Positions 40,478 to 47,007 of a DNA stretch of 64,000 nucleotides are shown piece after piece. Below the pieces are notes generated by a model, which saw only the letters and a list, made by a program, of their open reading frames with translations, had not been told where the DNA came from and did not search any database. Position numbers and translations under genes: made by a program. The stretch is from Candidatus Poribacteria bacterium (lineage in GTDB: Bacteria > Poribacteria > WGA-4E > PCPOR2b), in NCBI GenBank assembly GCA_965208675.1, contig OZ242351.1, positions 2,944,001-3,008,000 on the forward strand, written 5' to 3'. Each line of letters begins with the position of its first letter. The stretch's first letter is position 1.

Positions 40478-40506
40478 TTGACACAAACTGTGGATTCAGG
40501 TAAAAT
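40478..40506 (+). promoter_or_regulatory. sigma70-like promoter of hsdR
   Basis: TTGACA-N17-TAAAAT, 50 nt upstream of ATG 40556. Confidence 0.6.
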
Positions 40507-40555
40507 AACGATAACCATTGCAAGCAAATTTCAAGTCACGGCAGGTAAAGAGGAT

Positions 40556-43297
40556 ATGAACCCCGAGCAAAAAGCGAGACAGAACATTGACCGAATGCTC
40601 ACGGCCGCGGGATGGGCAATTCAAGATCGGGAGGAGATGAATCTTGGTGAATCGCGGGGTGTTGCAATACGCGAATTCCCCATGGTTTCCGGGACCGCAG
40701 ACTACCTGCTAATTATCGACAGAAAAGCTGCCGGAGCCATTGAAGCCAAACCGGAGGGCACCACTCTCAGCGGTGTCTCTGAACAAACCGAGAAATATCT
40801 CACTGGAATTCCAACGGAACTTCCATATCATCAAAACCCTTTGCCGTTCGGTTATGAGAGCACCGGCGTTGAAACGTTCTTCCGCAACCTACGTGATCCG
40901 GATTCCCGTTCCCGCCGCGTTTTTGCCTTTCACAAACCGGAAACTTTGGCGCAGTGGGTCACCCATCGGGATACGCTGCGAGATCTTCTGAAAGATCTGC
41001 CGCCGCTAGACCAGCATGGCTTACGAAACTGCCAGATTGATGCAATTGTGAATCTGGAGAAATCGTTTGCGGAAAACCGTCCCCGCGCACTCATCCAGAT
41101 GGCGACCGGAAGCGGGAAAACCTACACCGCCGTTAGTTTCGCCTATCGGCTCATCAAATTCGCAGAAGCTAATAGAATACTGTTTCTAGTTGATCGCAGC
41201 AATCTCGGAAGGCAGACGCTCAAGGAATTTCAGCAATATACCACGCCGGACGACGGCAGAAAATTCGCCGAACTTTACAACGTGCAAAATCTCACTGCCA
41301 ACCATATTGATGAGGTGAGCAAAGTCTGCATCACTACAATCCAACGGTTATATTCAATGCTGAACGGGGCATCGGACTTAGATGAGCAAATCGAACGCCG
41401 CTCGATGTTCGACATGATATTGGCGAATCAACCCGCTGCGGACGTGGAATACAATCCCGATATTCCCATCTCGACCTTTGATTTCATCATCACAGACGAG
41501 TGCCATCGCTCAATCTACAACCGATGGAGGCCCGTGCTGGAATACTTCGACGCCTTTATCGTTGGTCTCACCGCCACTCCATCAAAGCAGACACTCGGAT
41601 TCTTCAATCAAAATTTGGTTACGGAATACAGCCACGAGCGAGCGGTCGCGGATGGCGTCAACGTCGGGTATGATGTGTATCGTATCAAGACAGAGATTAC
41701 GGACCAAGGCGGCGGCGTCGAAGCAGGCTTTTACGTTGACAAACGCGACCGGCTCACCCGCGAAACCCGATGGGAACAGCTTGATGAGGATATGGAATAC
41801 AGCGCAACTCAGCTTGACCGCGCTGTCGTAGCGCTCGACCAAATCCGTACCGTGATTCAGACTTTTCGAGATAATCTTTTCACGGAGATTTTCCCCGGCA
41901 GAACCGATGTGCCCAAAACGCTTATCTTCGCTAAGGACGACTCGCATGCAGAGGATATAGTGCACACCGTCCGCGAACAGTTCGGGTTGGGCAATGATTT
42001 CTGCAAAAAGATTACATACCACACAACGGGTGAGAAACCGGAAGACCTGCTCGCCAGTTTCCGAAATTCATACAATCCGCGCATCGCGGTTACGGTGGAC
42101 ATGGTCGCCACCGGCACGGACATCAAACCGCTAGAGTGCATCACCTTCATGCGAAATATCAGATCGGCAGTTTACTTTGAGCAGATGAAAGGCAGAGGGA
42201 CGCGTACGATTTCACCGACGGACTTGCAGGCGGTCACGCCCGACACCAATCACAAAACTCATTTCGTAATTGTTGACGCGATTGGCGTTTGCGAGAATGA
42301 CAAAACCGAGTCCCGACCGCTTGAGCGAAAACGCAGTGTGCCGTTCGACAAGCTGCTCGAATCGGTGGCGCTCGGAATCAGAGATTCCGATACCTTGACG
42401 ACATTGGCGGGTAGGCTCGCACGCCTTGACCGTCAAATTGGTGATAATGCGCAAAGACAGATTACCGAAGCGTCAGGAGGTACCACCTTGGATGGGATGA
42501 TAAACAGGCTGCTTAAGGCTGTAGACCCGGACCAAGATGAAAATCCCTTGATGTCGACAGAATCCGAAACCCCAACACCTGAGTTACTGCGCGAATGGAG
42601 GGAAAAACGCATCACCGATGCGTGCAAACCCTTTGACAATCCTGAATTACGTAACACGCTTATTGACATCAAAAGGCGGCGCGAGCAGACTATCGACAAC
42701 GTGAGTGAAGATAGCCTCATCGAATCAGGATATGACCGTGAGGCAAAGGAGAATGCCGAGCGGATAGTGACGGACTTCAAACAGTTTATCGAAGACAATA
42801 AGGACGAGTTGACAGCGCTCCAAATCATCTACAGTAAGCCCTACGGACAGCGGTACCTGACATATCGGCAGGTTAAGCAACTTGCAGATGCCGTCAAAAA
42901 CCCGCCCCATAATCTCACAACCGTGAGGTTATGGCAGGCGTATGAGCAGTTGGACCGTTCGACAGTCAAAGGAGCGAGACCGGACAAGCTATTGACCGAC
43001 ATTATATCCTTGGTGCGTTTTGCGATTGGGGAGGCGGAAACGCTCGAACCTTACAAAGATAGTGTCGATCGGAGATTTCAGGAATGGCTTAACAAGCAGG
43101 AAAGACTGTATTCAGAGGAACAGATGGCGTGGTTGAAGATGATAAAAGACCATATCGCTACGTCGCTAGACATTCAACTGGAAGACTTCGAGGAAATACC
43201 GTTTAAAGTAAAGGGCGGGGCAATTAAGGCGCATCAATTGTTTGGCGATACGTTGGGAACAATCCTTGCGGTGATGAATGAGCAGTTGGCGGCGTAA
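40556..43297 (+). CDS. hsdR: Type I restriction endonuclease subunit R (EcoAI/EcoEI-like)
   Basis: ADY...IEAK nuclease motif, MATGSGKT, DECHR, GLTATP, TGTD, EQMKGRGTR and EcoEI-type C-terminus. Confidence 0.92.
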   Translation: MNPEQKARQNIDRMLTAAGWAIQDREEMNLGESRGVAIREFPMVSGTADYLLIIDRKAAGAIEAKPEGTTLSGVSEQTEKYLTGIPTELPYHQNPLPFGYESTGVETFFRNLRDPDSRSRRVFAFHKPETLAQWVTHRDTLRDLLKDLPPLDQHGLRNCQIDAIVNLEKSFAENRPRALIQMATGSGKTYTAVSFAYRLIKFAEANRILFLVDRSNLGRQTLKEFQQYTTPDDGRKFAELYNVQNLTANHIDEVSKVCITTIQRLYSMLNGASDLDEQIERRSMFDMILANQPAADVEYNPDIPISTFDFIITDECHRSIYNRWRPVLEYFDAFIVGLTATPSKQTLGFFNQNLVTEYSHERAVADGVNVGYDVYRIKTEITDQGGGVEAGFYVDKRDRLTRETRWEQLDEDMEYSATQLDRAVVALDQIRTVIQTFRDNLFTEIFPGRTDVPKTLIFAKDDSHAEDIVHTVREQFGLGNDFCKKITYHTTGEKPEDLLASFRNSYNPRIAVTVDMVATGTDIKPLECITFMRNIRSAVYFEQMKGRGTRTISPTDLQAVTPDTNHKTHFVIVDAIGVCENDKTESRPLERKRSVPFDKLLESVALGIRDSDTLTTLAGRLARLDRQIGDNAQRQITEASGGTTLDGMINRLLKAVDPDQDENPLMSTESETPTPELLREWREKRITDACKPFDNPELRNTLIDIKRRREQTIDNVSEDSLIESGYDREAKENAERIVTDFKQFIEDNKDELTALQIIYSKPYGQRYLTYRQVKQLADAVKNPPHNLTTVRLWQAYEQLDRSTVKGARPDKLLTDIISLVRFAIGEAETLEPYKDSVDRRFQEWLNKQERLYSEEQMAWLKMIKDHIATSLDIQLEDFEEIPFKVKGGAIKAHQLFGDTLGTILAVMNEQLAA

Positions 43298-43425
43298 GTG
43301 TAAGTTAGGTTGTTCAATCCAATAACATCTTTGTAACTCTCAAATGCATTAACATATACTCTCAAAAACGTTAATAACTCAATGTCTTATTAACGTAAAC
43401 CCGCAAAAACGTTAATAACGCGCAG

Positions 43426-43460
43426 AAAAGCCCTGCCGGCTAAATCCAATAGGGCTTTTT
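43426..43460. terminator. Possible bidirectional terminator between convergent hsdR and the sigma-clamp operon
   Basis: aaaagccct...agggcttttt stem. Confidence 0.5.
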
Positions 43461-43509
43461 CTATTATGAAATTTCATCATCAATCCGATGGCGCCGTTAT
43501 TGCCTGCGA

Positions 43510-43800
43510 TCAGATTTGTGAGCCGTGAAGCAACGGAGACACAGTTGATTCGATTGGAGGCACCGGTGCTCCAGAGTCTGGGAACAGCCATGGTTGCTCT
43601 GCCTCATCCGTGATGTCTTCAACGGATGGTTCGTCGAACGGCGTCGCTGGGCTCGTCCAGAACTCCATCCTTTGTACGCACCGATTAACGCTGATGCGAT
43701 CGTAAATTCGGACGCGGCGTTCATGGGCGAGTGTTTCTTGAGCGAACACTTCGCGCATCAATCGTATGAGTCTGTCAGTAGAAATGTCGGCTTGCATCAT
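43510..43800 (-). CDS. Small protein: helical N-terminus, acidic/Pro-rich tail with QPWLF motif
   Basis: ATGA overlap with the stop codon of the clamp-like gene, indicating translational coupling. Confidence 0.7.
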   Translation of the reverse strand: MMQADISTDRLIRLMREVFAQETLAHERRVRIYDRISVNRCVQRMEFWTSPATPFDEPSVEDITDEAEQPWLFPDSGAPVPPIESTVSPLLHGSQI

Positions 43801-44918
43801 TTCATGGGCATTACAACGTATTGAAAGTTTTGCGCCAATTCAAGGCGCATTGAATCAGTCGGTTCCGGACGCATCCAGAATATAACTTCGGCGGCATCGG
43901 TGTGCATTAACCCGTCTTCAATGAAACTGGCATCGAATCCTGCCGCAGTACCTTGCCCCTCATACTGAATCGGCACACAAGCTTTCGAATTTCCCCAGCG
44001 CGTACTATTTTCAACAGTCAACTGTCCATCACGAATGCAAAACTCCGTACGGTTGTGGGGGTGGTCGTCACCTATGCGGATGGCTCTGAGTGCCCACAGC
44101 AACTCTTGACGACTCAACCTGATTTCCAAGCGGGCGCTGTTCGCTTTTTCAAGAACCCACTTATAATCCGCGAAATCCTCTTTCGGCAAGAGACACTTTA
44201 ATGAAACCCCCTTAGCCTCAAAACCCACGGCGCTCTCAGTGAAGCGGAGGCGGCAGACGTTCGGATTTAAGGATTCTATCAAATCAATCATCTTCATGCA
44301 AGCGGCATAAGGCATTGCCCGCATCGGAATAGAGGTTCCCGCTTGGGCTGGTTTATTCATTGATGGAAAGCTAATCACTGCCATCCGTCTGCCATCGGTC
44401 GTCACAATTCGATCTTCGCCGTCATGTCGATGAAAGAGCGCTCCCGTAACAGAGGGACGCCGTTTTGCCTCGTCCGAGTCCGATGGCTGTACCGACGCGA
44501 ACAGAACGGATTTCAGAGCCGCGCCAAACTGCGGTGCTTGCACTTCATGGTCGGGCGCGTCGGTAAGCGCTTCAAGTTCGGGATTCTGCCACTTCTCCGC
44601 ATGCGTACGCACGGCATGCCGATGTTGATTGCCATCAACTTCCAAACACCCATGCCATTTGTGGTGACTGAAACGCAGTGTTTCACCAACCGCGTGGTTG
44701 CAGATTCGCGACAGCGCGTCCGGGGGAACGGTTGCCTTTCCGGTGGCTTCGACCTCCGCTGGAATCGCATAATCTACACGGAAATTCCCGTCGTCGGTGT
44801 AGCATCTAAACTGTAGTTGCGCAGTTTGAATCGTAATCGACAAGTGTGTCCCCGGTTCGTCGAGTTTCAATAGGGTTAAGGCGCGCGTCAGCGCAGCCAC
44901 ATCACAAGTGAATTTCAT
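43797..44918 (-). CDS. Divergent DNA polymerase III beta sliding clamp paralog (DnaN-like)
   Basis: 373 aa; MKFTC start after GAGGA; VTTDGRRMA (cf. VATDGHRLA), FADYKWVL (cf. FPDYRRVL), GFDASFI and C-terminal YVVMPMK (cf. YVVMPMR). Confidence 0.85.
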   Translation of the reverse strand: MKFTCDVAALTRALTLLKLDEPGTHLSITIQTAQLQFRCYTDDGNFRVDYAIPAEVEATGKATVPPDALSRICNHAVGETLRFSHHKWHGCLEVDGNQHRHAVRTHAEKWQNPELEALTDAPDHEVQAPQFGAALKSVLFASVQPSDSDEAKRRPSVTGALFHRHDGEDRIVTTDGRRMAVISFPSMNKPAQAGTSIPMRAMPYAACMKMIDLIESLNPNVCRLRFTESAVGFEAKGVSLKCLLPKEDFADYKWVLEKANSARLEIRLSRQELLWALRAIRIGDDHPHNRTEFCIRDGQLTVENSTRWGNSKACVPIQYEGQGTAAGFDASFIEDGLMHTDAAEVIFWMRPEPTDSMRLELAQNFQYVVMPMK

Positions 44919-45003
44919 CGGTTCCTCCCCACCCGCAAGGAGTGCATTGAGAAATGTCCTTCCCAATTGATGCCTACTTGGGTGTGTTTTTCTGAGTCTG
45001 GAA

Positions 45004-45561
45004 TTAGAACAGGTCTTCGATTGATATTTCTCTCTGTTTGAGCAGCCGCAACACCTCATCGCGCAAGGCGTTGCGTGCGCGTTGCCGAAGTGATTTAACA
45101 GCGATTTCGCTCCGTTGAACAATCTTTGCAATCTCTCGGTTCGGCATATTTTCCAATTCGCCCAACACCAGCACCGTGCGGTCGATAGGTCGTAGTTGAA
45201 GTAAGGCGGCTTGCAAATACTCCCTGCTTTCAGCGTTAATCAACCGTTTGAGCGACGATTCCGTCGAATCCAGCGAGAAAGACAACGACTGAGTCAATTC
45301 ATGCGTAATTGGATAATCGAATGAAATCGCCGGGCGTTGTTGGCGCTGGCGTAAAAGGTCGATACACCCATTGTACGCGATGCGGAACAGCCACGAACGC
45401 ACCGCCGCCGGGTCAAGTAACTCAGTCCAGCCCTGATACGCTCGGAGAAATGTCTCGGCGGTCATGTCCTCGGCATCTGTTGGGTTCCCCAGTAGCCGAA
45501 GAACAAACCGGTAGATAGCGTCAACATTCGATTCATATACCTCGATGAATGTCTCATCCAC
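45004..45561 (-). CDS. ECF sigma factor
   Basis: IYRFVLRLLGNPTDAEDMTAETF and SWLFRIAYN (region 2); MPNREIAKIV..SEIAVKSLRQRAR (region 4). Confidence 0.92.
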   Translation of the reverse strand: MDETFIEVYESNVDAIYRFVLRLLGNPTDAEDMTAETFLRAYQGWTELLDPAAVRSWLFRIAYNGCIDLLRQRQQRPAISFDYPITHELTQSLSFSLDSTESSLKRLINAESREYLQAALLQLRPIDRTVLVLGELENMPNREIAKIVQRSEIAVKSLRQRARNALRDEVLRLLKQREISIEDLF

Positions 45562-45664
45562 AAATGGTAAACCTCGTTGGCTTCGCGTTTTTCAAACCTA
45601 TATGACGGAATATCCCTGTCAAGGCATCGAAAAATCTGCGCCACCCAATTCCTCGGAAATACGG

Positions 45665-46661: not shown

Positions 46662-47007
46662 ATGGACAGAACACAAGAGCCGCTTGCCTTCACCGCATCC
46701 AGCTTCTTCCGCTTCCCACTGGAACAAGCAGAGTTTGTCGTGGATCGGGTCTCCAATCCCGGCGACTGGATTCTTGACCCATTCTGTGGATTTGGAACTA
46801 CGTTGGTGGCTGCTCAGCACCTTGGACGTCAAGCGATTGGATTCGAGAAAGACTTGCAACGTTTCGCTTTTGCCGCCAAGCGGTTGCTCCATCCAAGTCG
46901 TGTTTTTCCTGATGACAGCCGGCATATCCTAAGAGTTTGAACTGCTGTCGTTTGATTTACTGTTCACAGACCCGACGAATTGGCGGAAGAGATTGCCGCA
47001 AATCTAA
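46662..47007 (+). pseudogene. DNA N6/N4 methyltransferase remnant
   Basis: ILDPFCGFGTT..AA..LGR.AIGFE (motif I); stop at 46940; FDLLFTDPT (decayed DPPY motif IV) in a shifted frame. Confidence 0.7.

Follow-up and report, generated by a model that had tools for sequence, protein, structure and literature searches.

In the 64,000-nucleotide (nt) stretch of DNA analysed here (the window; Candidatus Poribacteria bacterium, contig OZ242351.1, positions 2,944,001 to 3,008,000), three tightly packed open reading frames (ORFs) on the minus strand, at positions 43510-45561, encode a sigma factor of the extracytoplasmic function (ECF) type, a paralog of the beta sliding clamp DnaN, and an orphan protein of 96 amino acids. 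We propose, with a probability of about 45%, that the three genes constitute one autoregulated operon acting as a clamp-scaffolded sigma switch. In the proposed switch, a dedicated platform would be provided by the DnaN paralog, whose presumed dimer has two canonical peptide-binding clefts. The small protein would dock on this platform via the QLWLF motif of its tail, which is acidic and flexible, and the ECF sigma via an invariant acidic/hydrophobic tail, ...S-I/L-x-D-L-F-COOH. The basic three-helix head of the small protein would most likely bind either sigma, in an anti-sigma-like manner, or the site that sigma occupies on RNA polymerase (RNAP), and the clamp would decide whether sigma is held inactive or is released and delivered to the polymerase. 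The input may be the loading state of the clamp on DNA, or else metal or redox sensing by a conserved His/Cys cluster. What we infer are all the protein-protein contacts of this model, the signal, and whether the regulation is positive or negative. At the level of sequence, the model is supported by the synteny and coupling of the genes, the conservation of the motif, the retained cleft, the sigma tail, the promoter, and the precedent of phages T4 and Mu.

The trio turned out to be syntenic in all 20 loci fetched, with sigma lying upstream and the small ORF starting at the clamp stop codon. The same order is found in a second copy present in genome G053 and in the most distant copy, that of genome G004, of which the clamp and the sigma are 41% and 57% identical, respectively. 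In the window, the stop codon of the clamp gene (43797-43799) and the start codon of the small ORF share an ATGA overlap. None of the 20 loci breaks the frame of the small ORF, its indels being multiples of three, and the variability at codon positions 1, 2 and 3 is 0.25, 0.20 and 0.37, respectively, so that the third position varies most. The kept frame and the third-position variability show that the small ORF is a real gene, beyond what would be expected by chance.

The AlphaFold model of the small protein contains three helices (residues 3-20, 26-38 and 40-49) with a predicted local distance difference test (pLDDT) score of 70-81, followed by a tail with pLDDT <50. The head has an isoelectric point of 9.5 and the tail one of 4.05, and the protein has no hydrophobic stretch resembling a transmembrane (TM) segment. 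W71, L72 and F73 never vary in the alignment of the small proteins, conservation reaches at least 90% at Q69 and L70, and the tail around the WLF motif is otherwise poorly conserved. The sequence Q-L-W-L-F is read in 18 of the 20 loci and W-L-F in all of them; the copy in the window has QPWLF, and one copy has PLWLF. Among the database clusters of the small protein, 26 of 27 have x-x-W-L-F and one has QLWMF, and distant forms of the protein read (Q/P)-G-W-L-F. The bacterial clamp-binding consensus is described as Q1-L2-(S/D)3-L4-F5, where L4 and F5 enter subsite 1 of the clamp and Q1 and L2 enter subsite 2 (PMC6204406). The QLWLF sequence of the small protein, located as it is in a tail predicted to be disordered, conforms to the bacterial clamp-binding motif (CBM).

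The number of motifs is not constant. In the copy of genome G005 (L019:2631-2981) the QLWLF segment is part of a 20-amino-acid tandem duplication, the second copy of which reads RLALF. Motif number also varies among the distant relatives (including G004, L039:10122-10607, and proteins P0092, P0094 and P0096), which carry an extra Q-x-x-L-W-P upstream; at the place of this second motif the main family has M-E-L-W or M-D-F-W, with an invariant W48. A profile search of 1.84 billion representative proteins returned only 12 relatives of the small protein. In ten of these the alignment begins at the N-terminus of the protein and at the start of the profile; the other two, P0093 and P0095, match only by internal stretches of long proteins. 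Searches of Pfam, NCBIfam and PHROGs revealed no consistent family for the small protein, the ESM Atlas gave no usable match, and no paralog was found in the genome that contains the window. Assignment to the GP68 family was rejected, the match being weak (E 0.12) and confined to one of the 20 members.

The likeliest start of the clamp gene is the ATG at 44918, located 8 nt past a GGAGG, which gives a protein of 373 amino acids; an alternative ORF of 444 amino acids, starting from a TTG, overlaps the sigma gene. The paralog aligns with TIGR00663 (dnaN) over 335 of 367 positions (E 2e-17) with 63 bits, which is below the cut-off of 137.65. The Pfam DNA_pol3_beta domains beta_2 and beta_3 score 18.5 and 13.2, both under the cut-off of 27. 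A profile built from 52 members of the clamp family retrieves solved beta clamps from the PDB with E of 1e-28 to 1e-18. The AlphaFold model (pLDDT 78) consists of three repeated domains, i.e. of a full-length clamp fold, and its best Foldseek matches are the beta clamps of E. coli and Caulobacter (E 2e-24, probability 1.00, TM-score about 0.57-0.60). The paralog is 20-25% identical to canonical clamps and does not lie in a replication-gene context. The genome, a single contig of 4.89 Mb with a completeness of 96.4%, has its canonical dnaN (290 bits, which exceeds the cut-off) at G000:C1:3248895-3249989, about 260 kb from the trio.

For a comparison of the cleft and of the charges, 21 paralogs were aligned with E. 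coli DnaN and 37 canonical clamps. At the positions that we take, after the literature, to be those of the E. coli cleft, all 21 paralogs have the same residue as E. coli for R152, T172, G174, R176, M362 and P363, and 19 of the 21 do for P242; L177, V247, M364 and R365 are conservatively kept. Like the E. coli protein, the paralogs have the C-terminus VVMPM(K/R). M362, S346 and R365 are named in PMC6204406. The residues of the peptide-binding cleft are retained in the paralog. The DNA-facing surface is different: the position of E. coli R24 is occupied by K in canonical relatives and by G, K or E in the paralogs, and that of R73 by K in canonical relatives and by D in 19 of the 21 paralogs. 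On average, the inner helices carry 9.1 K/R residues per clamp in the paralogs vs. 12.1 in the canonical clamps, and the net charge is -15 vs. -4.

The sigma factor matches Pfam Sigma70_r2 (59 bits, E 4e-16) and r4_2 (47 bits, E 2e-12), as well as TIGR02937 with 79.2 bits at a cut-off of 42.9, and with regions 2 and 4 only it belongs to the ECF family; in the NCBIfam search no specific ECF equivalog model was reached. Sigma is the most strongly conserved protein of the trio, with identities of 70-99% in the 20 loci. Its extreme C-terminus, which comes after region 4 and a conserved helix, reads S-[IL]-x-D-L-[FL] in 20 of 20 loci, and the G004 sigma keeps the tail as TIDDLF. Among the 79 database matches of the sigma, 62 end with x-x-x-[DE]-L-[FL]. 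Five distant ones (40-56% identity) have a similar hydrophobic/acidic end plus one to three extra residues, four are fragments without the family C-terminal end, and eight are unrelated ECFs (≤38% identity) without the tail. The nearest sigma paralog in the same genome is 32% identical, and a tail of this type is absent from the ends of the other ~36 ECF-like paralogs encoded there. The D-L-F-COOH end matches the subsite-1 half of the CBM. As a separate observation, many of the ~37 ECF-like genes of this genome (G000; e.g., C1:835232-835723 and about 20 other places) extend beyond region 4 by a Pro-rich linker and a TM-like hydrophobic stretch, and they resemble single-chain fusions in which an anti-sigma-like part is joined to the sigma.

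A block of the form TTTYCGATGCCT-N15-TCGTCATA precedes the sigma start by about 40 nt. Of 19 loci, 18 have the exact block and one has the variant CGGTTCC. The promoter in the window is composed of CGATGCC, a 15-nt spacer and CGTCATA. This is an ECF layout with a CGTC-type -10 element, as would be expected of an autoregulatory promoter. The exact pattern occurs a single time in this genome, at the trio, and across the 61 related genomes it is found almost only before trios, plus before a remnant of the trio in genome G033. Scored with a weight matrix, the site in the window reaches 34.9 bits; the next best in the 4.89 Mb reaches 23.8 bits and is not a plausible promoter, and the next-best sites are inside genes or lack a co-oriented downstream gene. 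Since a conserved ECF-type promoter precedes sigma and its pattern is nearly confined to trios, the operon is most likely autoregulated. Two additional similar sites were found outside the trios, one in G005 and one in G004. The G005 site was rejected as a target: it lies 425 nt upstream of a gene for a secreted protein, adjoins another ECF-fusion gene and is not conserved elsewhere. Upstream of the sigma in G005 (L036), three tandem repeats of ~50 nt containing CCGGTACGTCATAATAACG are situated directly upstream of the conserved promoter.

An initial annotation of this DNA, made from the letters alone, had reported a co-oriented trio comprising an ECF sigma, a full-length but strongly diverged DnaN-like clamp, and a 96-amino-acid protein with an ATGA overlap, a QPWLF sequence and no TM helix, and all of this is borne out by the data above. 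It had also named a separate canonical dnaN, conservation of the trio and conservation of QxxLF as three of the four points on which its proposal would stand or fall, the fourth being an interaction of clamp with peptide or of sigma with the small protein, and each of the three was found. Two strings in the sigma had been listed there as weakly resembling clamp motifs. One of them, SIEDLF, is indeed at the conserved C-terminus, although its conservation is much stronger than had been assumed; the other, QSLSF, is in a variable linker, is not conserved and has to be dropped. The interpretation given at the time, a clamp-controlled sigma switch, finds partial support: conservation of the trio and of the motif and the status of the clamp as a paralog hold, but the binding is putative. 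The small protein may act as an anti-sigma, an adaptor or a co-activator, and the clamp may work either on or off DNA.

Autoregulated ECF operons normally encode their own negative regulator. The clamp-scaffolded switch is favoured because an autoregulated ECF operon needs a brake and the head of the small protein is the best candidate for binding sigma or RNAP. Prediction of the complex as three chains together, clamp, sigma and, as the partner, the small protein, gave scores of 0.58, 0.50 and 0.53; the control with the clamp replaced scored 0.59 and those with the partner replaced 0.00, a result that counts neither for nor against binding. Several points weigh against the switch. The small protein matches no anti-sigma family, as no Pfam match at E ≤5 is common to more than two of the 20 members, and it does not qualify as a class I anti-sigma (ASD/zf-HC2), its head being devoid of Cys/His motifs. 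The clamp gene sits between the sigma gene and the small gene, unlike the usual adjacency of sigma and anti-sigma. The sigma tail fits only the D-L-F half of the clamp-binding consensus. Having lost basic DNA-facing residues and become more acidic, the paralog may not encircle DNA. No target promoter besides that of the operon itself was found in this genome with the pattern and the matrix, by which degenerate promoters would be missed. Finally, the module is dispensable: its distribution is patchy (21 of 61 genomes), and it has decayed in G033.

Table 1. Features of the sigma-clamp-small protein operon, in window coordinates
Feature	Position	Strand	Details or basis
ECF-type promoter, conserved; putative function	45596-45634	-	-35-like 45623-45629, -10-like 45601-45607
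ECF (group 4) sigma gene, GTG start, 185 amino acids	45004-45561	-	Pfam and TIGR02937
C-terminal tail of sigma, S-I-E-D-L-F-COOH, resembling a CBM	45007-45024	-	Conserved; putative clamp binding
Sigma-clamp spacer, 85 nt, with GGAGG ribosome-binding site at its end	44919-45003	-	16-locus alignment
Beta sliding clamp (DnaN) paralog, 373 amino acids	43797-44918	-	Fold and homology
Orphan 96-amino-acid protein: basic three-helix head (3-49), acidic Pro-rich disordered tail (50-96)	43510-43800	-	AlphaFold, isoelectric point
Clamp-binding motif Q-P-W-L-F; family consensus Q-L-W-L-F-P-D	43582-43596	-	Alignment
Terminator-like hairpin followed by UUUUCU, closing the operon	43423-43463	-	Folding -17.9 kcal/mol, z-score -2.2

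The arrangement of a sigma, a clamp and a docking peptide appears so far to be known only from the late transcription of phages T4 and Mu. The peptide-binding cleft of a clamp is also used by the clamp loader. It is conceivable, although in our opinion unlikely, that the module is a cellular counterpart of T4 late transcription, in which a DNA-loaded dedicated clamp would be the tracking activator of an ECF sigma, or its sensor of the state of DNA. The paralog would be loaded by the host clamp loader, track along DNA and activate the sigma-RNAP complex via the sigma tail. The small protein would be a gp33-like co-activator, which represses basal transcription and activates it when held by the clamp; jointly with this, sigma and the gp33-like co-factor would both be tethered to the clamp by CBMs. 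In T4, gp55 and gp33 each have a CBM on a linker (PMC7892883, PMC2988020). The three parts correspond to the T4 set described in these sources: a sigma-family protein with a C-terminal motif, a helical protein of ~100 amino acids with a motif on a linker, hydrophobic/acidic motifs and a ring clamp (gp55, gp33 and gp45, respectively, in T4). The conserved cleft and the full-length clamp fold of the paralog are consistent with such a role.

On the other hand, the differences from T4 are considerable. The gp55 protein has no region 4 and the T4 late promoters have no -35 element, whereas the poribacterial sigma is a complete ECF protein with an intact region 4 and its promoter has a conserved -35. 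The T4 clamp is the replicative one and is trimeric, of the PCNA type, whereas the poribacterial clamp is a dedicated paralog of the dimeric beta type that exists beside a canonical dnaN. The fewer basic residues, both in the inner helices and at the positions of R24 and R73, also speak against a clamp that tracks along DNA, and so does the failure to find other promoters. The T4 system is encoded by a phage; the poribacterial module is chromosomal and cellular. A pattern scan of IMG/VR yielded no relative of the module, and in INPHARED the clamp had only matches of 21-23% identity and the small protein none. An origin from a phage or prophage was rejected, given the lack of viral relatives in these two collections and the variation of the neighbour genes between genera. 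The PHROG search gave no match of the small protein to the gp33 family, nor was gp33 homology seen with Pfam. Homology, phage origin and promoters devoid of a -35 being all wanting, the module is not a member of the T4 family.

Beside T4, phage Mu offers the closest analogue, and the module has in common with both the principle of clamp-binding motifs on transcription factors. The MuC protein of Mu (Mor/MuC family), a transcription factor working with the host DnaN in late transcription, bears two near-consensus bacterial CBMs that are needed for transcription (PMC12867686). MuC is a DNA-binding activator that acts with sigma70 and the host replicative clamp, and neither a dedicated clamp nor a motif on sigma is described.

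A second alternative, which we regard as improbable, is that the clamp and the small protein are not the regulators of the sigma but its stress-induced products, which modulate replication or repair. The QLWLF protein would plug the canonical DnaN, similarly to clamp-binding toxins and over-expressed MuC, and the paralog would be a decoy or immunity clamp, or else an alternative clamp. This would agree with the fact that the operon is the only detectable target of the sigma, and the motif is canonical enough for the canonical cleft. The presence of two or three motifs in some relatives of the small protein would suit the plugging of both clefts of the dimer. Over-expression of MuC is reported to disturb replication via the clamp (PMC12867686), and the patchiness, transferability and decay of the module are typical of accessory units. 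However, the invariant C-terminal tail of the sigma would be left unexplained and the autoregulated ECF operon would be left with no negative regulator; furthermore, a comparison of the neighbour genes shows that the module is not accompanied by any polymerase or repair gene.

The paralogs are rich in Cys, His and Trp, with 8.3, 13.1 and 4.9 residues per protein vs. 2.1, 2.5 and 0.1 in the canonical clamps, and H85, H86, H89, C91, H99 and H101 form a conserved cluster in domain I, which may be a metal or redox site. This enrichment and the strong divergence from canonical clamps in score and identity might mean that the paralog is a pseudo-clamp scaffold, i.e. a His/Cys-rich sensor or structural protein on which no peptide docks, and that WLF and DLF are conserved for binding each other, RNAP or a protease, but the cleft residues are the best conserved part that the paralogs have in common with canonical clamps and the motif is a textbook match, which makes this reading very unlikely.

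The clamp-scaffolded switch can also be compared with cellular systems. Known modes of control of ECF sigmas include anti-sigmas, fused extensions, phosphorylation and partner switching. The module resembles the ECF sigma/anti-sigma pairs in being an autoregulated operon where an ECF sigma is co-transcribed with a small helical protein, and the head, with ~50 amino acids, is of a size seen in the short class II anti-sigmas (CnrY/NepR-like). It differs from these pairs in that there is no ASD or zf-HC2 match and no TM segment, a clamp gene is interposed, and the candidate regulator has a CBM. With canonical DnaN and its partners (Pol II/III/IV, Hda, MutL) it shares the three-domain fold, the cleft residues and the Q-L-x-L-F ligand motif. 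Unlike canonical DnaN, the paralog is below the family cut-offs, has altered DNA-facing residues, is His/Cys-rich and is encoded outside a replication-gene context. The partners of canonical DnaN are DNA enzymes, whereas those proposed for the paralog, and co-encoded with it, would be a sigma and an orphan protein. In the literature searched, no account was found of a cellular sigma that has a clamp of its own. The terms 'clamp', 'DnaN', 'polymerase III' and 'Poribacteria' are absent from the main text of the paper that re-classified the ECF sigmas (PMC7826278), although its supplements with the group contexts might list such a case.

If the clamp-scaffolded switch is correct, clamp docking of a sigma and an orphan protein would be a new principle of control in the largest family of alternative sigmas, and a bacterial clamp paralog would have been recruited for regulation and not for DNA synthesis. 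If instead the T4-like arrangement were to apply, initiation would be tied to DNA ends, nicks or replication, possibly to those of invading DNA, with no membrane anti-sigma involved, which would amount to a new class of ECF sigma regulation. As small, soluble proteins, the three components lend themselves to heterologous reconstitution even though Poribacteria are uncultured.

The full-length paralog is present in 21 of the 61 related genomes, in 22 copies. By genus, it occurs in three of four genomes of the same genus, eight of 20 of genus g5, eight of 10 of genus g11, and the one genome each of genera g2 and g3; it was not found in the 14 genomes of family f2 or in the seven of family f4. 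In a species-representative collection, the paralog family is confined to metagenome-assembled genomes of Candidatus Poribacteria, which are bacteria associated with sponges. A further 39 matches from Omnitrophota, Planctomycetes and others were discarded, as they turned out to be canonical DnaN (25-38% identical to the canonical DnaN of the present genome) with no sigma nearby. The paralog in the window is 70-77% identical to those of g11, which belongs to another family, vs. 57-60% to those of g5, which belongs to the same family. For the canonical DnaN the relation is inverted, with 64-67% to g11 vs. 69-72% to g5. The neighbours of the trio differ between genera, and within g5 the trio occupies various places in a cluster of genes that modify small molecules. 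In general, the module behaves as an accessory, transferable unit, and its sequences bear signs suggestive of horizontal transfer.

Decay is evident in G033, where a remnant (L040, G033:C2 about 5257800-5258300) has sigma residues 1-91 fused to clamp residues 321-373 and keeps the promoter, its surroundings being otherwise syntenic. Locus L063 is likewise a decayed copy, with overlapping partial matches to the sigma and the clamp.

The spacer between the sigma and clamp genes has indels in four of the 20 loci and is 88-93 nt long in the others. Two g11 loci (L006 and L007) carry insertions of 120-170 nt, which give 213 and 258 nt, and two g5 loci (L015 and L018) carry a deletion of 30 nt, which leaves 61-62 nt. 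A conserved RNA structure in this spacer was considered and rejected, since RNAalifold gave -3.3 kcal/mol for the 16 loci, with one compensatory pair in 10. At the other end of the operon, the terminator-like hairpin was not picked up by a consensus terminator scanner, probably because its loop is too long for the scanner.

Both flanking genes are outside the unit. The convergent neighbour encodes an HsdR-like type I restriction subunit (40478-43297, plus strand); an HsdR-like gene also adjoins the trio in G003 (L024) but not in G002 (L023). The divergent neighbour is a xylose-isomerase-like TIM-barrel gene that has a sigma70-like promoter match of its own. A remnant of 92 amino acids at 46662-46940 (plus strand) resembles the N6/N4 DNA methylase that adjoins the TIM-barrel gene in related loci.

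Some observations concern the replication genes of these bacteria more broadly. A Y-family polymerase (PF00817) was not found in the genome that contains the window by a search that was positive in 10 of 14 control genomes. Genomes of family f2 (in G029-G060; e.g., G047:C21:28530-32452) possess two or three tandem copies of canonical dnaN. They also have reading frames of 582-615 amino acids that include a DnaN-like part with 41-47% identity.

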